The translations under genes and the position numbers were made by a program. DNA of 62,414 bases, the filler included. It is 11 parts of 11 records of this genome, joined end to end, with 100 filler letters (N's around TTAATTAATTAA, not from the genome) between each part and the next. Parts side by side here need not be neighbours in the genome. Positions count along the whole stretch, not along the records: positions 32,749 to 37,706 come from SRR7504441_8915; 10 more parts are not named here. One strand, 5' to 3'. The notes beneath the pieces were generated by a model. The model was not told the origin of the DNA. It did no database searches and was given only the letters and a program-made list of their open reading frames with translations. Shown in pieces: positions 3,616-58,903 of this stretch; the first letter of the stretch is position 1, and every line of letters starts with the position of its first letter.

Positions 3616-3715
3616 NNNNNNNNNNNNNNNNNNNNNNNNNNNNNNNNNNNNNNNNNNNNTTAATTAATTAANNNNNNNNNNNNNNNNNNNNNNNNNNNNN
3701 NNNNNNNNNNNNNNN
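3616..3715. other. Artificial contig linker
   Basis: 100-nt N-run with TTAATTAATTAA six-frame stop core. Confidence 0.99.
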
Positions 3716-14842: not shown

Positions 14843-14942
14843 NNNNNNNNNNNNNNNNNNNNNNNNNNNNNNNNNNNNNNNNNNNNTTAATTAATTAANN
14901 NNNNNNNNNNNNNNNNNNNNNNNNNNNNNNNNNNNNNNNNNN
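14843..14942. other. Artificial contig linker
   Basis: N-run with TTAATTAATTAA. Confidence 0.99.
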
Positions 14943-19106: not shown

Positions 19107-19206
19107 NNNNNNNNNNNNNNNNNNNNNNNNNNNNNNNNNNNNNNNNNNNNTTAATTAATTAANNNNNNNNNNNNNNNNNNNNNNNNNNNNNNNNNNNNNN
19201 NNNNNN
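19107..19206. other. Artificial contig linker
   Basis: N-run with TTAATTAATTAA. Confidence 0.99.
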
Positions 19207-24661: not shown

Positions 24662-24761
24662 NNNNNNNNNNNNNNNNNNNNNNNNNNNNNNNNNNNNNNN
24701 NNNNNTTAATTAATTAANNNNNNNNNNNNNNNNNNNNNNNNNNNNNNNNNNNNNNNNNNNN
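24662..24761. other. Artificial contig linker
   Basis: N-run with TTAATTAATTAA. Confidence 0.99.
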
Positions 24762-28430: not shown

Positions 28431-28530
28431 NNNNNNNNNNNNNNNNNNNNNNNNNNNNNNNNNNNNNNNNNNNNTTAATTAATTAANNNNNNNNNNNNNN
28501 NNNNNNNNNNNNNNNNNNNNNNNNNNNNNN
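28431..28530. other. Artificial contig linker
   Basis: N-run with TTAATTAATTAA. Confidence 0.99.
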
Positions 28531-32648: not shown

Positions 32649-32748
32649 NNNNNNNNNNNNNNNNNNNNNNNNNNNNNNNNNNNNNNNNNNNNTTAATTAA
32701 TTAANNNNNNNNNNNNNNNNNNNNNNNNNNNNNNNNNNNNNNNNNNNN
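32649..32748. other. Artificial contig linker
   Basis: N-run with TTAATTAATTAA. Confidence 0.99.
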
Positions 32749-35700
32749 CGACTTCCCCGCGGAGAGCTACTGGGGCATCGCCGACCTGTAAGCATCATGC
32801 AGCCCGGGCCCTCTGACCAGCTGGCAGCGCGCCCAGGAGCATCATCCCGTTCAAGGACGGCGCGGCCAAGCACGCCCAGGCCGGCGCGGTGTTGCGGGAC
32901 GATGACCTCCGGCACGGGATCGCCGAGGTCCCAGCTCCCGGCTGGCGGGGTCCAGCCCGTTGGGTCAGGCCATGATCCGGTACCGGGCGCGCCATAGTGC
33001 GATGACGCACCGGATGCTGTGCCAGGAGCTCGGGATCGCGCCGGCGTTCTTTGTAGGTCTGTACGCGGTGCGGACTGTGGCTGGCTCAGCTGACCAGGGG
33101 AGCAGGGATTGCTCTCGGCCAGCGGGTGGCCGGAGGACGATACGGGGGAGCTGACGGTGCTGGAGCAGAGCGGGCAGTTGGGGTTGGTGGCGCATGCGGA
33201 TGGGGTGGTTGCAGAAGGCTTCGTCGCAGATGGGCTGGTAGCCCGACGTTGCAGATACGGCTCTGGGCTCTCAGGCGTGAAACCGTTTGTCGAGGCTGTG
33301 AACTATGTCCGCTGTCTGGAATTACCAAGCCAGGAAGCCTATAAACAGTGGAGCAAGAGCGGCTTACGGCCATCAGACATCCCGTCCGATCCTGCGCTAG
33401 TGTACGGGGGGCATGGCTGGCAGGACTGGGGCCATTGGCTAGGCACGGGCACCGTTTCCAACGCAAATAGAGTATTTCGTCCGTTTGCTCAGGCGGTGAT
33501 GTTCGTTCGGTCGCTCAGGCTGCCGAACGTCTTGGCCTGGAGGGAATATGCCAAGAGTGGCAAAAGGCCCGACGATATTCCATCCAACCCCCAGAAGACG
33601 TACGCAGGGAAGGGCTGGCAGAATATGGTACACTGGCTTGGTAACGGCAAGATTTCAACAGCCAGGGGAGGCTGCATTTCCGCGGAAGCAGCTGCGGTGC
33701 TGCCCCCTGCTAGGCTTCCGCAGGGGCTGCTCATCAACCATGGGGGAGTCCTGGAGCCTGCGAATACGTTGCGCGACCCCGCCCCGGACGATGCACAGCG
33801 CTTCACGGGTGGCGGCTTGGCGGACCAGCTAGCTGCAATGCCTGGGCCTCAACCGGCACATCGCTACGAACATGTACCTCCTCCGAGTGACTGCGAGCCT
33901 GCTGGTTGGCAGGATGTGGTGTATGAGATTCAGCGGCAAGGCGCCACTCACTGGTGGGACACAGAGGCTCTCGCGGGGCTGGCCTCGGGCTCTAGCAGAA
34001 CTCCAAGGCAGGTCCCTCCGCCCAGTCTGCAACACGGCGCCGACGACGGGAATTCCTCTCCTGCTCCTCACCATGCATTGAATGCAATTCCGTCCATCAG
34101 TCCCCGGATCGATACTCCCAGTGGTAACAACATCCAAACCGGTCCGCAGCCTCGCCGGGTGAGTTTCCACCGGCCTGTGGTTGTGCCGCGTCGCCTCCCC
34201 CCGCCGAGTGTGAACCATACTACTGTACCCGACGTTCCTGGTGAGGTAGCACAGTTTATTCAGGATGACGACGAGGAGCGAAATGCGGAGGAGCATTTTA
34301 TTCTGGGCGGCGACGAGGAGCACACTATGGACTACAGCGCTGACATGATGATGATGTCGGGGGTTGAGGTCCTACCACCCGGGCTGCCCTCCTATGTGGA
34401 GATGCAGACGCAGTCAAATGCAAGGCACGAGCGCGCGGTGCAATTCGACTCTCTGAGCAAACTGCCCGTGGTCGATGTGGAGGCCGTCAGGCAAGTCGAG
34501 ATCCGGCTGACTAATTGGATCCGTACACGGGTTGAGCGGGGAGAGCCAGTGTATTTGCGCCAAGTGCGCAACTCGTTCCATAAGCAGCACCGGGCGGCTG
34601 GGGGGACTCCGCAGGGCCTGGGCATGGCGATTCATGAGGCGCTAGTCCTTACAGGCGCCACTGTGACGCAAGGGCCCATGCCTGCTAATTGCAAGCGGAA
34701 GCCTGGATCGAGATTGCCCCGAGCTCCTACGAGCCCAGCCGGGATCCGGGCGGTGGAGGAGCAGATGGTTACCTGGGCGGCCGACAAGGTTACGCGTGGG
34801 CTGCCTGTGACCAGCAAGAAGGTGCGTGACAAATTCCATGTCCAGCACAAGGACGCCGGTGGTACCCCTGAGCAGCTGGCGCAAGCCCTCAAAGACGTGA
34901 TGGCGGCAATTGCTGCCCTGAGCAGCTCTGAGCATGGCAGTTCACCGCTCGCACTTAATGACACACAAAGACAAGATGAGACCTCTGGCCAAGGAGAGCA
35001 AGGACGGACACAGCAGGCTGCTCAAGAGGCAACCGCCGGTGAACAAGAGCAAGGACAGATACAGCAGGTTCCTGAGAGGACGCGAGCCTCCAAGGGTCGT
35101 CTCCCCCCAGCTCGACCGTTTGCTGAGGCACTCACGTTCGCCCGTGCGCTCGGGCTGAAGGGCCAAAGAGCATGGACGCAGTGGTGCGCGAGTGGGGCCA
35201 GGCCAGCCGACATTCGATCCAACCCCCAGAAGACGTATGCCGGGAAGGGCTGGCAGGGCTGGAGCCACTGGTTAGGCAACGGTGTAGTGACACCCTCTGT
35301 CTGTACAACGGGCAGCGCTCTCATGGAAAGGAGCAGAGCAGATTTGCGTACATGGCAACCTCCATCGGGCCTGCCGGCAGCAGCAGTGATAGTGATGCCA
35401 GTGGGATCAGTCGTTGCCTCGAGAAAATCTGCGTTTAGTGTCGACAAAAGTACTGCCGACGAAACAAGGGACAGCAGGGGCAAGGGGGGCAGGGCCTATA
35501 GTACCGACCACAGACAGGCCGTTGAGTCCGTGAGCCTCCAGGCGCTGAAACAGAAAATGGACCTGCCAATCGCTGAGGCTGCCAAGTACTTTGGCATCCC
35601 CCTCCGTTGCTTTCAGAGGGTAGTCTGCCGAAAACACGGGATCCAGCGGTGGCCCTTTCGGCACAAAAGGAAAAAACAGGCGGCGGCCTTTCCAGTGCAA

Positions 35701-36012
35701 GAGGAATTTGTGGTGGAGAGGATTCTGGCCGAACGGGAGGCTAAGTCGGGTGGCAACGAATACTTGGTCGAGTGGGCAGGCTACGATACCGATGAAAACA
35801 GCTGGGAGCCCGAAGAGTCGATCGAGGATACGGCTGCGCTCGACGACTGGCTCGAGCAGCAGAAGGACAACCAGTGTTTGGTGGAGAGGACGAACGGGCT
35901 TCAGCAACCAGCCAGGGCACGTGAAGAGAAACGGGATAGAACAAACAAGCTGAAACGCAAGCGCGTATCAGAAAATGAAGACGGCGGGAGTACGAGCGAT
36001 AAAGGTCAATAG
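32749..36012 (+). CDS. Multidomain chromatin protein: (PWWP-like tail) + 3 phage-integrase repeat units + RWP-RK + chromodomain, 5' truncated
   Basis: Three short introns join 32750 in frame to ORF 33109; repeats (K/R)PF..A....L.L....W..SG.RP.DI.S.P...Y.G.GW....HWLG; VSLQALKQKMDLPIAEAAKYFGI...CRKHGIQRWPFR; EFVVERIL...EYLVEWAGYDTDENSWEPEESI. Confidence 0.85.
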
Positions 36013-36129
36013 TGCTTACGGCGATTTGGTAATCACATGACTTGCAATTGTAATCAAGACAAATTATACACGCACGTGGATATCACCACCCGTGGCTGGA
36101 TCTTAGCTGCATGCAGCCGTGGTTTTAAA

Positions 36130-37320
36130 TCAATCTACTAAAACCTGGTTCACGATCGCCTCGAACTCGTCGATATTCGAGCTCCCAACCAACGCACACC
36201 GCAACTGCTGGCTAGTATACGGTCCTAAATACTCGAACACGCATCGGTGACCTTTGCCGCTCCGACCGAGCATCCACATTATGTGTCCCCGAACCCAACT
36301 CACGTCCGGAGGAGGCCATTCCCGGGCCAGCGCCAGATACTCGAGGGCCACAGCCCTAATCTCAGCAACAGACGGCTCCTCGTCGTCCTTGCATTGCTCA
36401 AACAATAACGGATTGACTAAGACCCCCTCCCCTGACATCAGCCCAGCGGCCCCTGTATACGCTAGGTTGTACGGCACGTCGGCTCTGTAGCTCGTATTCC
36501 CGTTAGTCATCACTGGAATCCTCACGCCGGCCACCACCGCAGCGACTGCGTCCAAGTCTGCCGCCCCAGCCCGCTGCTTCCGCCGCTCTGGCGGGGGCCG
36601 CCTCCTGCCATGGACGGCGAGCGCCGAACAACCTGAGCGTTCGAGCATTCTGCAGAACTGGATCGTGTCCCGCTCCGAGTCGAGCAGCCGAATCTTACAA
36701 AACACTGGCAGCTCGATCCGGGCGGCCACAGCGGCCACTATCTCGGCCACTCGGGTCCAGTGCTCCCTCTCGAGGAGATATGCACCGAACAAACCCTCCT
36801 GCGCCTGCGGCAGAGGACAGCCCAAGTTTAGGTCAACCGCGTCGCAGAGCGGCGCAACCAGCGCGGCCGCATCCGCCACTAGAGCGGCATCGTTGCCGCA
36901 CAGCTGGACCACCAGCGGCCGGTCTGCCGGGCAGCTCTGGAGCCGGTCCCGCCGATAGGCTGGGTCCCGGACTAGCCGGTCGCTGAACAGCATCTCCGTG
37001 TAGCAGAGATCGGCCCCGTGGCGCCGGCAGAGCAGCCGAAAAGCCAGGTCAGACGCCCCGACCATCGGTCCCACCACCCGACCTATCCGGAAGTCCACTC
37101 GGCGCGCGTGCGGGCGCAGCCTCTTGGCTGGGCGAAGCGGCTCCTGCTCCGCCGGGGGGCTGGGGGCAGCATAGTCCGGGCTGTCGCCGCCATCATACGC
37201 TGGACTTTCGCGGCCAGTATAGTTTGGGCTGTGGCCATCGCGGCCAGTATAGTCTGGGCTGTCGCCGCCAGCAGAGTCCGGGCTGGAAGCAGCATAGGCC
37301 GTGCCAGCAGCGGGCAGCAT
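36130..37320 (-). CDS. DUS1: tRNA-dihydrouridine synthase (DUS1-like)
   Basis: PMVGASDLAFRLLCRRHGADLCYTEM; DRPLVVQLCGND; DAVDLNLGCP; PVFCKIR; LAVHGR; IPVMTNGN. Confidence 0.92.
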   Translation of the reverse strand: MLPAAGTAYAASSPDSAGGDSPDYTGRDGHSPNYTGRESPAYDGGDSPDYAAPSPPAEQEPLRPAKRLRPHARRVDFRIGRVVGPMVGASDLAFRLLCRRHGADLCYTEMLFSDRLVRDPAYRRDRLQSCPADRPLVVQLCGNDAALVADAAALVAPLCDAVDLNLGCPLPQAQEGLFGAYLLEREHWTRVAEIVAAVAARIELPVFCKIRLLDSERDTIQFCRMLERSGCSALAVHGRRRPPPERRKQRAGAADLDAVAAVVAGVRIPVMTNGNTSYRADVPYNLAYTGAAGLMSGEGVLVNPLLFEQCKDDEEPSVAEIRAVALEYLALAREWPPPDVSWVRGHIMWMLGRSGKGHRCVFEYLGPYTSQQLRCALVGSSNIDEFEAIVNQVLVD

Positions 37321-37365
37321 GGCTCCGAATATAAAAAAAATTGCCGCGGATTTCGATTCATCAAC

Positions 37366-37706
37366 ATGGCCACCGGGACTTGGGCCGTGCTGGGTGGGAT
37401 TCTGCTGTGCACCGCCGGGCTTACGCACCGGCTCCCGTGGTCGACCGGGCTGGAGGAGACGGAGAGGCTCACCCGGGCCTTCATGACGGGGATGTGGGCC
37501 GGCGCGGACCCTGACACCTGCGACCCGCTCTCCCTGACCACCGGCCAGATCCTGGCCCAGTGCCGGGTGCCGCGGGTCAGCGAGGGAGTGGACGTGGTGG
37601 TCTTCCTGGTCTACAGCGCGGCGCTCTTCATGATCAACTGGGGAGTCCGGATTGCGCTGGTGCAGCCGGTGGCGGCCGTCATGCTTAAGGCCGGCGCCAT
37701 CTCCAC
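37366..37706 (+). CDS. Membrane protein N-terminus, possibly ceramide synthase (LAG1/TLC family), 3' truncated
   Basis: ATG 37366; DVVVFLVYSAALFMINWGVRIALVQPVA resembles the helix preceding TLC domains; catalytic motif not in window. Confidence 0.45.
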
Positions 37707-37806
37707 NNNNNNNNNNNNNNNNNNNNNNNNNNNNNNNNNNNNNNNNNNNNTTAATTAATTAANNNNNNNNNNNNNNNNNNNNNNNNNNNNNNNNNNNNNN
37801 NNNNNN
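37707..37806. other. Artificial contig linker
   Basis: N-run with TTAATTAATTAA. Confidence 0.99.
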
Positions 37807-40133
<2,327 letters not shown>

Positions 40134-44353: not shown

Positions 44354-44453
44354 NNNNNNNNNNNNNNNNNNNNNNNNNNNNNNNNNNNNNNNNNNNNTTA
44401 ATTAATTAANNNNNNNNNNNNNNNNNNNNNNNNNNNNNNNNNNNNNNNNNNNN
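44354..44453. other. Artificial contig linker
   Basis: N-run with TTAATTAATTAA. Confidence 0.99.
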
Positions 44454-51179: not shown

Positions 51180-51279
51180 NNNNNNNNNNNNNNNNNNNNN
51201 NNNNNNNNNNNNNNNNNNNNNNNTTAATTAATTAANNNNNNNNNNNNNNNNNNNNNNNNNNNNNNNNNNNNNNNNNNNN
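51180..51279. other. Artificial contig linker
   Basis: N-run with TTAATTAATTAA. Confidence 0.99.
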
Positions 51280-54200
51280 GTTTCTGGGGTGGTGACTCAA
51301 GGCCGACACCACCACAATCACAACCAATGGGTCAAAAGCTACACTGTCAAATCAAGCGAGGATGGCACTTCCTGGCTTGACGTTGATGGCGCCAAAACCT
51401 TCCCAGGAAATTTTGACAAGGACACTCAATTGAGCCAAAGCTTCTCAAAGCCAGTGCAAGCACGCTATATCAAAATTCTTCCTGAAAGCTTTCAGTCGCA
51501 TATCGCAATGCGTGCTGGTGTGATTGTGGTGTCGCGTGCTGATGTCAAATTGATCGGCAGTAACACCTGGCAGGCCCAGAATGTAGTCGATGCAAGCGCC
51601 AGCCACTCTGTGGCTGGCAATCCTTTCAGAGTCAAAGCCGACGAGTTGTCTATGGTGTTTGACCTGAAGACGCCGCACTACATCGATCAATTCAGAGTGT
51701 ATGGCAGCACTTACAAAGCGTGTGCCAAAAAGGTGGATCTGTACTACGGTGACAAAATCTCAGGTCCCTGGACAAAGGTTGTAGACGATCTTGAGATCGA
51801 AAAGGAGGAGAAATGGTTCACCTCATCTCGATTCAGCCTGGTGAAGGCACAGTACTGGAGGACTAAGTTCAAACAGCGCAACGGAAAGACTAAGATCGAA
51901 GTAGCGGAGGTCCAGTTCCATGGCAGCCGGAAGGCATCGCCCAAGGTAGCTGCGTTGAATGCATTTTCCAAGAACGAAGGCAAGCAGCTGGGCGGCACTT
52001 ACCAGACTTCAGACATCACATCCGAGTACTGTGCCTCTCTCTGCTTTGCGGCTGCCAAGTGCAAGTCGTTCAATTATGACCGAGTCAACCAGCGGTGCAG
52101 CCTTAATGAAAAGACTCAGGCCTCGGCCCAAAACCAGTACTCGAGCTCGGACGACCAAGATTACTATGAGAAGATCCCGAGCATGCGCAAGCACGGAGAG
52201 GCCAAGGCCTGCGAGCTGAGGAGGTGCAAGCATGACTGCAAAAAGCGAGGCAAATGCGACGAGAAGACTGGCCGGTGTAAGTGCGACAGCAAGTACTATG
52301 GAGACCACTGCCAGTTCACAAAATGTCAAGCCCAGAAGAAAGCGTTCTTCCGCAAGTCCAATCCAATGAGCTGCAGCGCCAGCGGCAAGTGTATCCGCAG
52401 GAGCGGCAAATGCCGCTGTCGGAGCGGGCACCAGGGCTCAGGATGCGAGGAGCGCAAGTGTCCAAATAAGTGCTCCGGGAAGAAGAAGGGCAAGTGCAAC
52501 CCTGCTGACGGCAAGTGCCAGTGCACCAAGAATTACACTGGTCGGGACTGCAACCTCAAGCGCTGTCCGAGGAACTGCAACGGCAACGGCAAGTGTGATC
52601 ACGAGAGCGGCAAGTGCCTCTGTCGGAGTGGGTACAGCGGAGACCAGTGTGTCAAGGACAAGCCGTGCAAGTCGACTACAATGAATTGGTGGGAATCGTT
52701 CAACGGCCAGGGCTGGTCGACCTGCCCGTCCTCGAGCATTCTCACAGGGCTGTACCGGAATGTCAAGGGCTGCGAAGGCCTGTACTGTGTAGAGATGGCG
52801 CGATGCTCGGTCCCGTGCGCAGGCAAGACTGAGAAGAACATCGGCAACTGCTACCACCCGGATTGGAGCCAGAGCATGTCCCAGCGTGGCTGGGCCAAGT
52901 GCGAGACAAATTATTTCCTGGCTGGGCTGTACAGAGAGGACTGCCACTCGCTCTACTGTCTGAGCAGGGCCAAGTGCTGCGAGGTCTCAGGCTCGGAATG
53001 GGACAAGTGCACGACCGTCAACTGGCGGGAGCAGATGTCGGACAAGGGCTGGGCATATGCTCCCGGGGCTCTGTTCCTCACAGGGCTGCTGCGGGTGGGA
53101 GACAAGACGCAGAGCCAGAGCAACGGGATAAGCAACATCATGATGGCTTCAGCTTGCAAGTTCAAGAAACGCCCCAAGATCAAGTATTGTGGCGACGGCA
53201 AGAGAAGCACAGAGATCAAGGAGGGATGCGATGACGGCAACCAGTACAGCGGCGATGGCTGCTCTAGCACGTGCAAGGTGGAGAGCGGCTGGAGGTGTTC
53301 GCACTCGAGCACTCCGCTGGTAGTCAGCGACCTGTCGCCTTCTGACTACAAGGAGCTCAAGGGCGGGCTTGGGCACGGCAAGAAGTACTACATTGATGAG
53401 AGCTTCACAACCGGCGAGGTCAAGGATTCGAAGCTTGGTGGTGAGTATGCAATCATGACCAAGAATGCTGATAAGGGGTCGGATACCTCAATCACTTTCA
53501 AAGTGAACCAGAATGTTCGCGTGTTTGTGCTGCTGGACAGCAAGTTCCCTGGAGTCTCCAGTGGCACCCTCCCTGCGTGGGTAGCTGATCGGTTTGTCAA
53601 GACATCTCGCAAGCTCCCAGTTCACGGCCGCGAGACAGGAGCACACTTTGTTGTGTTCAGGTCTAAGCACATCCACACAGCAGGCACTGTGACAGTCGGG
53701 CCCTCCTCAGGGAGCAAAGGACCGGCGCAGCACATTGTGGTTGTCAAGCGGGCGATCTGCAACGAGGTAGTGCCGTATCGGAAGGGCTCTGCCAAACTTG
53801 TGGGCCGGATGAGCTTCTACCACTTGGAGCGGAAGCTGCAGCGGGACGCTTCGGGCAAGTCGGTCTGTGGCTCCGGATTCCATGTGTGTAACTACCAAGA
53901 GACTACAGTGTATGGCGTGATCCACAGGGAGGGTCTCTCAGGGAGGTCTGGCTGGATCGTTGGAGGTTTCTCCAACTGGTGGCGGCACCGGCGGTCGATG
54001 TGGAATGGACAGGACTCGATGCAGTGCCGCTGGTGGCAAGGCCCGCGCTGGTGGGGCCGGTGGGGCCCATACAAGGGTCGAGTTCACTGCTCTCACAGAT
54101 GGCACCGGTCGCCAGTGGTCTGCTGCAGCAACCAGCCGGATCGCGAGGAAGCGGCGGTCAAGCAAGGACCTGTTGTCAACTACTGGCACCTGAACCACTT

Positions 54201-57200
54201 GCTGAATCGCGACTGGCAAGGCCGGCGGGTGTGTGGGGGCGGCTGGCATGTCTGCAACTACGCCGAGACTACAGTGTACGGTGCAATGAAAGGACACACG
54301 TTCGCAGGGCGCAGGCACCTCTGGATCACTGGCTCTTTCTCCAATTGGGAAAGGCACCGAAGGTCGGTTTGGAACGGGCAGGACTCGACTTGGTGCCGTG
54401 GCGGGCGGTACCCATCTTGGTGGAACAAGTATCACCATTATCACGGGCTGGTGCACTGCCTGCGCGGCCACCACAGGCTGCCTGTGGCCTGCTGCAAAGA
54501 CCGGATGGCGCAGCCCAAGGCACGGTATAACGATCGGTTCAAGAACGGCCCTAGGCTGAATGGATGGCACGTGCAGCACAGGCTGAATCGGAACTGGCGG
54601 GGCGCGAGGGCGTGCGGGACTGGCTGGCATGCGTGCAATGCGCAGGAGGTGCTAGCGTATGGGACTTACTTCCACGCCAACCTGGGTGGGAATCAATGGA
54701 TGGTCGGAGGGTTCTCAAACTGGTGGCGGCACCGGAACTCGATCTGGAACGGCCAGAGCGCCGTCCAGTGTCGACACTGGTGGAAGATGCCGCTGCTGAT
54801 CTCCAAGTGGGGCCCGTACTTTTCGAACATCCACTGCGTGCACAAGTGGCACCACACGCGGGTCGCTTGCTGCTCAAACAGTGGCTTTCCCAAAACTGCA
54901 GTCGGCGAACTCAACTTGGCGCCATTCGCCACCTTAGCTATATCCAGTGGCAGCTGGAAGGCAGGAGCAGTTGACGGTGTGAAGAAGGAATGCTCTGGCG
55001 GTGGTGGGTGCGGGGGAAAGGTCTGGAGAACCAACAGTCCGATTGGGGCGTGGATCAGCTTCGACTTTGGGGCACCAGTCGAGATATTTAAAGTCGTGGT
55101 GTACAACCACAACCACCCTTCGACTGGCGACGTTGCGACCGCTGCTGTCGAGATCTCTGATAACAACAACAGCTGGCGCCGAATCGCCACGATGAGCCTC
55201 TCAGATACGGCTGGGGCGCAACCGAATTACCCACAGACGCTTCACGTGATGGACCATGCAAGATACTGGCGGCTGAAGATTCTGTCCACGCACAGTGGTG
55301 GTGGAGACAGTGGATTTGCAGAGGTCGAGCTATACAAAGAGGGCAAAGGGACAGATCTCAACTTCTTCAAGCTGTATGAAGAACACAAGATGGATGGACA
55401 CGTTCTCAAGACCCTCGACAACCACGGTCGGATGCAGTGTGCGACTGATTGCACCCAGGAAGAGGAATGCAAGTCGTTTGTTTACTACCAAAGTCAGACA
55501 AAGTGCATACTCCATAAGGAGAACCGCAATATCGGCAGCGCATACCAGGCGGCCAGCAGTGGGATTGACTACTACGAGAAGGTTGTCGATAAACACTCGA
55601 GAGGCTACTGCAAGCACCGAATGACCGACTATCGGGGTACTATTGCCGTCACTCGTCGTGGCGCCGATTGCCAGAAGTGGACTGAGCAATACCCTCACAG
55701 ACACAGCAACACTCCGTCGAGAAGGCCGGGAACAGGAATCGGGGACCACAACTATTGCCGGAATCCGAGCAACTATCACGGAGGAGCCTGGTGCTACACT
55801 GCAGAGAGCGGCCGACGGTGAGGTCTCGAGCGTTGCGCGGTGCTAAACTTGTGCTCTCAGGTGGGATCGATGCAACATCCCGAGGAATGAGAAGTGCGGT
55901 GTGATGTACTCTCGCAACATCAGGGGCGGCGGAGGCTGGCATCGGCGCGAACCAAACTTGCGCATTTATTCAAAGACTGCAGCAGCCAGCGTTCGGCTCG
56001 AGTCTCGCAAGCCAAGCGACCCCGAGGAGGTCTAGCCCCTGGCCGAGCAGCCCGTGAGTGCTTGGGCTGTCAGGTGTACATTGAGCTTCGGAACCGGAAC
56101 AGAAACGCGGCATGGGGGATTGGGATGAATGACGACTTCAACTTGTGGTGGTGCTACGGCCGGCTGGGCACTATGAACAAGCGGCACTGTGCCATGTACA
56201 TTGAACCGTCCGGCAAGGTGCACATCTTGGGCAAAGCAAAATTCGATAAAGTGCCCAACAAGAAGCCTCCAGGCCACGAGGAGCTCGAGCAATCGACCGC
56301 ACTGCTCCAAGAGGAGGAAGAGCTAGACTATGCCCCACAGCAGGCTTACCCCAACTCGCAGCAGATGCAGCTCAATCCACTTCCCCCGCAGCAAGGATAC
56401 CCGCAGCCTGGCTACCCGCAGCAGCCGCCTCCGCTGAATCCCGGAATGCAGCAACCAATGAATCCTGGAATGCAGCAGCCGGGGATGGCGCCGGGCCAGC
56501 CGATGCAGCCAGGCTATCCTCAACAGGCCTATCCTCAGCAGGGGCCAATGAACATGCCACAGCAGCCGATGCAGCCAATGCAGCCGCAGCCGCAGCCGCC
56601 AATGCGACAGAACAGGGCTCAACGGTTCCAGCAGTTCCCTCAAGAAAAGTCTGAGAGCTCCGAGCTGCTCCTGCTCCAGGAGAGATCCACTGAAGTCACA
56701 GACTCCAAGGCAGTCGCAAAGACCGAGACCAAGGCCACAGTAGACACCGAGCTGCGCGAGAAAGCCGACAAGCAAATCGGAGGCTCAGGCCGGCGTGAGC
56801 CTGTTGCAACGTGGTATGCGTATTACGACGATTGCTCTATCCGGTTGGAGTCGCACAACCGGCGCCAGGATCACCCGGTGTACTTTGAGCTCCGGAACCA
56901 GAACAGTGATGACGCCTGGGGGATTGGTATGTCCAACAACAACCGGCTCAAGATCGGGTACGGTAAGCTTGGCAAGATGGCCGAGAAGACAGTGTCGATG
57001 GAATTCGTGGCAGGCCGGAGCAAGAAGGTGATCTTCCACAAGGATGTCGTGTTCCACAAGCGGCCGAGGTTCCCTGGTGATGGATTCCCGGACTTCAGGA
57101 ACAAGATGAAGATCGGGTCACTGATTTCCCTCAAGGGTGGTCGCCAGCGCTGGCGGAAGCACTGTGCAGATGAGGGCTGGAGAGTGGTGTGCAATCGGCC

Positions 57201-58803: not shown

Positions 58804-58903
58804 NNNNNNNNNNNNNNNNNNNNNNNNNNNNNNNNNNNNNNNNNNNNTTAATTAATTAANNNNNNNNNNNNNNNNNNNNNNNNNNNNNNNNNNNNNNNNN
58901 NNN
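58804..58903. other. Artificial contig linker
   Basis: N-run with TTAATTAATTAA. Confidence 0.99.

Follow-up and report, generated by a model that had tools for sequence, protein, structure and literature searches.

We describe here a gene that joins, within a single exon, an RWP-RK domain and a chromodomain with intact aromatic cage residues to three repeats of the INT_rpt family (PF14882). It lies on the plus strand of contig SRR7504441_8915 (4,958 bp, positions 32749-37706), one of eleven contigs that, joined end to end, make up the 62,414-base window analysed, and all positions given are those of the window. The order of the encoded modules starts with a 5' part that possibly holds another reader and continues with two INT_rpt units, an acidic and proline-rich linker, two copies of a second duplicated unit (unit B), the third INT_rpt unit, the RWP-RK domain, the chromodomain and a basic tail, and we consider it very probable that this arrangement is real. 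The component domains are already known and their combination is new. We propose, with moderate confidence, that the product, which has at least ~1,040 residues, is a chromatin-associated protein of several modules that binds DNA. The gene is a nuclear gene of a marine eukaryote whose 5' end has been lost at the contig edge.

An RWP-RK domain and a chromodomain in one open frame

A single open frame of 972 codons (33094-36012, plus strand) holds the RWP-RK domain, the chromodomain and all three repeats (Table 1). With the stop frequency of 0.035 per codon that follows from the local base composition, the probability of finding no stop over 972 codons is ~1e-15. In this frame the coding potential, for which nine further genes from the window served as training set, is mostly positive and falls solely within low-complexity linkers, the acidic linker being low in part, and the codon usage of the gene matches that of eukaryotic genes on other contigs of the window.

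Both C-terminal domains score above their Pfam cut-offs, the RWP-RK domain with 38.6 bits (PF02042, cut-off 29.3) and the chromodomain with 52.9 bits (PF00385, cut-off 25.1), and they are separated by only 14 residues in the same frame and the same exon. An earlier note, made from the letters of this DNA, had placed the RWP-RK domain at about 35530-35665 and, at about 35700-35850, a chromodomain with its F/W/Y cage; the Pfam boundaries and the alignment described next agree with it on both. The C-terminal 192 residues match 72 sequences of the Protein Data Bank (PDB) at E<=1. Every one of the 60 listed is a chromodomain protein, and the top matches are Chp1 (3g7l, 1.8e-9), CDYL (2dnt, 2.2e-9) and CDY (3.9e-9), together with HP1/CBX1/3/5. 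Residues F872, W894 and Y897 align to Y, W and Y of Chp1 3g7l, in the columns that form the methyl-lysine cage in HP1/Polycomb/CBX structures. Phenylalanine at the first cage position is the state found in CBX7-type domains.

The chromodomain thus shares with those of HP1, Chp1, CDY/CDYL and CBX proteins the PF00385 match and the aromatics at the three cage positions, and differs from that of Chp1 in having F, not Y, at the first of them. Unlike in the HP1, Chp1, CDY and CBX proteins, no chromoshadow, CoA-pocket or helicase partner domain accompanies it; it is joined instead to a DNA-binding domain of sequence-specific type. As for the RWP-RK domain, in plants and algae these factors govern nitrogen responses and also sexual or life-cycle switches, and their RKD/MID-type members are without PB1, unlike NLP/NIN. 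The protein described here has in common with the short RKD/MID-type members a C-terminal RWP-RK domain and no PB1 or GAF domain detected by Pfam. It differs from them in the chromodomain that follows directly, in the three INT_rpt units and two more helical units, in its much greater length (at least 1,040 residues) and in the motif itself, RWPFRHK, with an extra residue before K.

The repeats belong to the INT_rpt family

Self-comparison of the protein recovered three repeats of 58 residues at exactly the positions claimed in the earlier note. Their pairwise identities are 30/58, 30/58 and 36/58, so they are old copies and not the result of a recent duplication. A phmmer search against 1.84 billion representatives found 5,831 proteins at E<=0.001. 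Among the best 150 of these 5,831, with E-values from 3e-163 to 2e-65 and 3-12 matched stretches each, the best stretch lay in residues 50-208 for 147 and in residues 669-731 for 3. A word-indexed search with the whole protein gave 13 matches, each covering 13-15% of the query, and 8 of the 13 carry the PF14882 label. The INT_rpt cut-off is passed by 32 relatives in total, namely P0140 and P0017, 23 of 38 further ones and 7 of 8 of the group with 'HWLG' unit endings. Single units of the protein are 50-62% identical to single units of relatives, with which they have in common the conserved columns F, A, L, W, P, IP, P, Y, GW and WLG (signature F..A...L..W...P..IP..P...Y...GW....WLG). Since relatives matched at such E-values pass the cut-off, with this shared signature and unit identity, the repeats are, judged by sequence comparison, members of the INT_rpt family despite a direct score below the cut-off, and their homology to it is beyond doubt. 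The likeness to PF14882 put forward in the earlier note therefore stands as homology to the family, and not as a direct Pfam score above the cut-off. The Pfam model scores few and divergent units poorly; its unit is also phased differently, with profile position 1 falling at 'DIPSNP' of the unit as delimited here. The profile gave no match on repeat 3 alone and is absent from the Pfam list of the whole protein at E<=1. A table in PMC8078820 gives PHINT_rpt as an earlier name of PF14882.

The domains that accompany INT_rpt units were scanned with Pfam (E<=1e-5) in 38 relatives, 33 of them with the largest non-repeat parts plus the five top matches, a sample biased toward multidomain proteins. 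Partners were almost all nucleic-acid enzymes: SF2 helicase domains (ResIII/DEAD/Helicase_C/SNF2) in 26 of the 38, the Mrr_cat_2 nuclease in 15, Methyltransf_8 in 3, and Integrase_2 and TIR_2 in 1 each, with RWP-RK or Chromo in none. The idea that the gene had recruited a phage- or virus-type repeat finds no support in these partners, which are chiefly helicases and nucleases, and 'phage-integrase repeat' is a historical name that is uninformative on origin. Three of the relatives (P0069, P0095 and P0040) combine INT_rpt arrays with an SF2 helicase and a C-terminal Methyltransf_8 domain of Rrp8 type, unlike the common Mrr-helicase layout.

In comparison with INT_rpt/PHINT_rpt proteins, that is bacterial and phage SF2 helicase-Mrr nucleases, integrases and stand-alone arrays, the unit of ~58 residues and its signature are the same. 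Here, however, there are only three units, two adjacent and the third 490 residues away, and they stand in a eukaryotic chromatin-type protein without an enzyme domain. They also end differently from the majority of INT_rpt units: all three end in HWLG, whereas unit endings counted in 164 proteins, the three units here included, comprise 659 DWLG, 58 HWLG and 80 others. HWLG endings dominate in 9 of 163 relatives, which rank first for repeats 1 and 3; repeat 2 is nearest to a helicase unit. By the look of its sequences, the HWLG subgroup appears to be eukaryotic. In two HWLG relatives, a stretch near the N-terminus (about residues 95-160 in P0038, about 90-130 in P0132) resembles by eye a Tudor or Agenet domain, and Pfam matched nothing there at E<=5. 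If true, this likeness would tie the HWLG subgroup to chromatin readers more widely.

Modelled with AlphaFold2 from a 32-row alignment, repeats 1 and 2 reached a mean pLDDT of 89.9, each unit consisting of two helices of 9-10 residues and, after them, two short ones. The repeats had no sequence match in the PDB at E<=10. In a metagenome contig of the run X2, position 33384 is joined to 33600; the 215 nt between them are missing, 17 other letters stand in their place, and the shorter side has only 23 letters. This contig most likely represents a related repeat unit from a different gene or organism rather than a variant form of the present locus.

Unit B and the remaining parts of the protein

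Self-comparison also revealed a second internal duplication (score 81), unit B, which is absent from the earlier note. Its second copy gave the weak match to HTH_Tnp_Tc5 with E 0.028 and 14.8 bits, below the cut-off of 22.2, and this match is a lead and no more. AlphaFold2, run from the single sequence on residues 455-935, had a mean pLDDT of 48.5 overall; copy 1 was modelled as a three-helix bundle with pLDDT 78-95 over model residues 1-70, and copy 2 shows the same helix pattern with pLDDT 41-54. Structural matches of the unit B model were generic three-helix bundles only (Z<=6.9), Foldseek found nothing at E<=0.001 and no PDB sequence matched at E<=10. An apparent metagenome relative of unit B (L001 7028-7129, 33 residues, 38% identity) was rejected as a chance match, its surroundings being a bacterial operon for cytochrome c oxidase.

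Repeats 2 and 3, both copies of unit B and the RWP-RK domain are all basic (pI 9.3-11.2). In the charged tail, the KLKRKR stretch may be a nuclear-localisation signal. A search of NCBIfam with the protein returned no family at E<=1.

The putative 5' exons

Position 32749 is the first base of the contig, and therefore any gene that reaches it is truncated. Upstream of the main frame, coding signal is distributed over successive frames, with +2.0 at 32749, up to +16.0 at 32839 in the second frame and +3.4 to +10.4 at 32929-33019 in the third, before passing to the main frame; the weak signal of exon 1 (+2.0) is positive in its frame alone. When the four exons of Table 1 are joined at GT..CAG sites, the reading stays open for 1,039 codons up to its stop codon. 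The three introns are in the same size class as those of a thioredoxin-reductase gene on the next contig, which requires GT-AG introns of 53 nt (38701-38753) and 38 nt (38844-38881) for its conserved frame, and tiny introns seem to be typical of this genome. The spliced 5' exons suggested earlier are in agreement with these data, and we consider the three tiny exons plausible.

Their proposed identity as the tail of a PWWP domain is more tentative. By eye, the exon peptide shows a succession of a putative aromatic-rich strand, 'PF' and a putative helix, which would be compatible with the end of a PWWP barrel. Searched separately, the translations of exons 2 and 3 gave no Pfam match at E<=10, and exon 2, which with exon 1 would form the putative tail, had no match among PDB sequences at E<=10. 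Exon 1 contributes only 12 codons, and most of any PWWP domain, including the barrel that bears the motif, would fall upstream of the contig edge.

Relatives and public data

Word-indexed searches with residues 780-972 yielded 466 candidates among proteins of lengths 534-1701, none at E<=0.001, and 540 among shorter proteins, none at E<=10. With the C-terminal 192 residues, 128 pattern matches in metagenome contigs and 6 in viral contigs gave 0 confirmed in either set, and the ESM Atlas held no usable match for residues 790-935 or 440-972. As these searches need shared short words or near-identity, the negatives on the C-terminal half mean that there is no close relative, and not that the protein is unique. 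A full-text search found no publication describing an RWP-RK fusion with a chromodomain or PWWP; among the papers that mention RWP-RK together with either of these, no title or opening of an abstract points to such a fusion, and in two of them the terms refer to different proteins.

Two DNA runs from two studies match the contig, with 0.09 and 0.07 of the sampled words. The public metagenome pieces on the contig are near-identical, 39-255 bp long, and lie within the RWP-RK gene and the neighbouring dihydrouridine synthase (Dus) gene; none of the pieces from these two runs spans a domain boundary. Two of them, 34289-34452 and 34699-34912, fall inside the main frame with 2 differing letters each.

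Assembly setting and neighbouring genes

The contigs of the window are ~3.6-11 kb long, as in a fragmented assembly, and those on either side of a spacer (44 N, TTAATTAATTAA, 44 N) are not genomic neighbours. The G+C content of the window is ~50-68%. The only other gene of the contig is Dus (Pfam Dus, 203 bits), convergent with the RWP-RK gene and with 120 bp between their stop codons. The Dus frame continues without closing as far as the right-hand edge of the contig, and its N-terminal part is long and of low complexity. Eukaryotic genes on other contigs comprise ATG16-WD40, Rav1 C-terminal, patatin, CLEC16A, the high-molecular-weight thioredoxin reductase, Band 7 and F5/8-C/EGF/PAN proteins. 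The long frame listed last among the genes of Table 1 is open at the left contig edge and resembles a large adhesion-type surface protein.

Table 1. Features of the RWP-RK/chromodomain gene and of its surroundings in the window. Residues are numbered along the 972-codon frame; a slash marks the splice site.
Feature	Positions	Strand	Details
Putative exon 1	32750..32787	+	open at 5' contig edge; phase 2 end, donor CCT/GTAAGC
Putative intron 1	32788..32836	+	49 nt, GT..CAG
Putative exon 2	32837..32927	+	strongest 5' coding-potential peak, +16.0
Putative intron 2	32928..32968	+	41 nt, GAG/GTCCCA .. GGGTCAG/; frame switch seen in coding potential
Putative exon 3	32969..33052	+	coding potential +3.4 to +10.4; in-frame ATG at 32972
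Putative intron 3	33053..33105	+	53 nt, TTT/GTAGGT .. GGAGCAG/; coding potential then shifts to main frame
Main exon	33106..36012	+	stop codon included; open frame itself from 33094
INT_rpt repeat 1	33277..33450	+	residues 62-119; best single-unit match 52% identity, P0128
INT_rpt repeat 2	33475..33648	+	residues 128-185, pI 10.6; 60% identity to unit of helicase P0002
Acidic, proline-rich linker	33661..34458	+	residues 190-455, pI 4.9, 13% Pro, no recognised domain
Unit B copy 1	34477..34653	+	residues 462-520, basic; predicted three-helix bundle
Unit B copy 2	34735..34911	+	residues 548-606, basic; weak HTH_Tnp_Tc5 match
INT_rpt repeat 3	35110..35283	+	residues 673-730, pI 11.0; 62.5% identity to unit of P0141
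RWP-RK domain	35527..35664	+	residues 812-857; Pfam PF02042, profile positions 1-45 of 49
Chromodomain	35707..35853	+	residues 872-920; Pfam PF00385
Charged C-terminal tail	35854..36009	+	residues 921-972, 13 K+R, KLKRKR stretch
Dihydrouridine synthase gene	36133-37704	-	Pfam Dus
Thioredoxin-reductase gene, next contig	37808-40130		Thioredoxin + Pyr_redox_2 + Pyr_redox_dim
1,513-codon open frame	51280-55818	+	F5/8 type C, EGF-like, NedA-like galactose-binding and PAN domains
Spacers	3616-3715, 14843-14942, 19107-19206, 24662-24761, 28431-28530, 32649-32748, 37707-37806, 44354-44453, 51180-51279, 58804-58903		

Discussion

The working model that we favour, and hold to be reasonably probable, is that of a chromatin-tethered, sequence-specific DNA-binding protein in which the RWP-RK domain reads DNA and the chromodomain reads marks of the H3K9me/H3K27me type. 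DNA binding, histone-mark binding, nuclear location and regulatory outcome are each what we infer from the modules. The helix-turn-helix of the RWP-RK domain would recognise a DNA sequence, and the chromodomain, of HP1/CDY/Chp1 type, would bind a methylated lysine, with H3K9me and H3K27me as the likeliest candidates. The action of the protein would thereby be confined to, or favoured at, those of its sites that lie in marked chromatin, or the protein would help to establish such chromatin there. The three INT_rpt units and the two basic copies of unit B probably add contacts to DNA or to partners, and the acidic, proline-rich linker may be a flexible spacer or an effector region. The earlier note had spoken of a transcription factor coupled to histone-methyl readers; since one exon encodes the repeats, the RWP-RK domain and a chromodomain with an intact cage, a DNA-binding factor combined with a methyl-lysine reader is a fair reading, and the part of that description which invoked recruitment from a phage or virus is not retained.

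Several observations weigh against this model. The motif of the RWP-RK domain reads RWPFRHKRK, in which RWP is exact and one extra residue stands between R and K, while the canonical eponymous motif is RWPxRK. When AlphaFold2 modelled the C-terminal half from the single sequence, the RWP-RK region had a pLDDT mostly below 50, and the chromodomain, whose family fold combines a sheet of three strands with a C-terminal helix, was not folded (pLDDT below 50, no strands). Chromodomains can act as protein-protein modules, and cpSRP43 is found among the weak PDB matches, with E 0.013-0.025 against ~1e-9 for the best. The INT_rpt profile reached 17.8 bits on residues 58-189, below its cut-off of 26.5. 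The model of repeats 1 and 2 had no significant match among solved structures (best Foldseek E 4.0; best VIA-align Z 3.2, to the RepB origin-binding domain), so that the fold yields no function. Among the proteins, metagenome and viral loci and Atlas clusters searched there was no relative of the same architecture that would speak for conservation of the fusion and hence for its function. Finally, a sampled-word search of public runs listed no RNA run matching the contig.

An ordinary RWP-RK regulator, for example of the nitrogen response or of gamete programmes, in which the chromodomain and the repeats serve protein contacts or are neutral and no histone is read, is an alternative that we regard as unlikely. 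Of the modules in the protein, only the RWP-RK domain has a regulatory role that is well established; there are chromodomains that bind partners other than histones, to which the weak match to cpSRP43 may be added; and domain shuffling is common in protists. However, all three aromatic cage positions are retained, and the best matches of the chromodomain are histone methyl-lysine readers, at E ~1e-9 compared with ~1e-2 for cpSRP43.

Somewhat less probable still is a protein derived from a mobile element or a virus, domesticated or active. Its chromodomain would then direct integration or binding to heterochromatin, as that of chromoviral integrases does, and its INT_rpt units and transposase-like helix-turn-helix units would be what is left of an integrase or transposase. 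INT_rpt does occur with Integrase_2 in one of the 38 relatives scanned and the Pfam family is named after integrases; matches to HTH_Tnp_Tc5 (E 0.028-0.067), HTH_psq (E 0.1) and HTH_23 (E 0.042) were obtained, all below their cut-offs; and, with the 5' end of the gene beyond the contig, an upstream catalytic domain is possible. On the other hand, Pfam detected no integrase, transposase, reverse-transcriptase or DDE domain in the 972 residues, and there is no second copy of the gene in the other 10 contigs of the window. The codon usage and the tiny introns are of host type, the housekeeping Dus gene lies 120 bp downstream, and the chromodomain is closest to the classical readers HP1, CDY and Chp1. 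That the fusion is an artefact, either a chimeric contig or a decaying pseudogene, is very improbable: the assembly is fragmented, no RNA run matches the stretch and the public metagenome contigs cover short pieces that bridge no domain boundary, but the stop-free frame of 972 codons, the two intact Pfam domains 14 residues apart in the same frame and the near-identical short pieces from two independent studies inside that frame argue against it.

Returning to the model of a DNA-binding factor that reads methylated histones, proteins that work in a similar manner are ARID4A/B (Tudor/PWWP-like, ARID and chromo-barrel), CHD1 and the fission-yeast CENP-B homologues with Chp1. The common logic is a DNA-binding module together with methyl-lysine readers in one polypeptide or complex. 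The comparison implies no homology, the DNA-binding folds being unrelated, and those proteins are not known to contain RWP-RK or INT_rpt. It is possible, although doubtful, that the gene represents a new class of reader-coupled transcription factor, which would unite RWP-RK and a heterochromatin-type chromodomain, possibly with an N-terminal PWWP-like reader, and would place INT_rpt for the first time in a eukaryotic chromatin protein. The significance of the finding is limited in that domain shuffling is common in protists and the gene is incomplete at its 5' end, and the architecture links a gene regulator with marked chromatin in a manner that is unusual rather than revolutionary.

For the INT_rpt family, the occurrence of its unit in a eukaryotic protein with parts of DNA-binding and chromatin-binding type adds weight to the idea that the unit binds DNA; the reading as a new class of factor, if true, would point to DNA binding as its long-unknown function. 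On that reading, a DNA sequence and a methyl mark on a histone would also be read jointly by one polypeptide, which could nucleate or interpret silent chromatin at specific sites, such as repeats, mating-type or life-cycle loci. To our knowledge, how RWP-RK factors meet chromatin is poorly understood. In this sense, the fusion offers a testable hypothesis, namely that some RWP-RK factors may act via marked chromatin.

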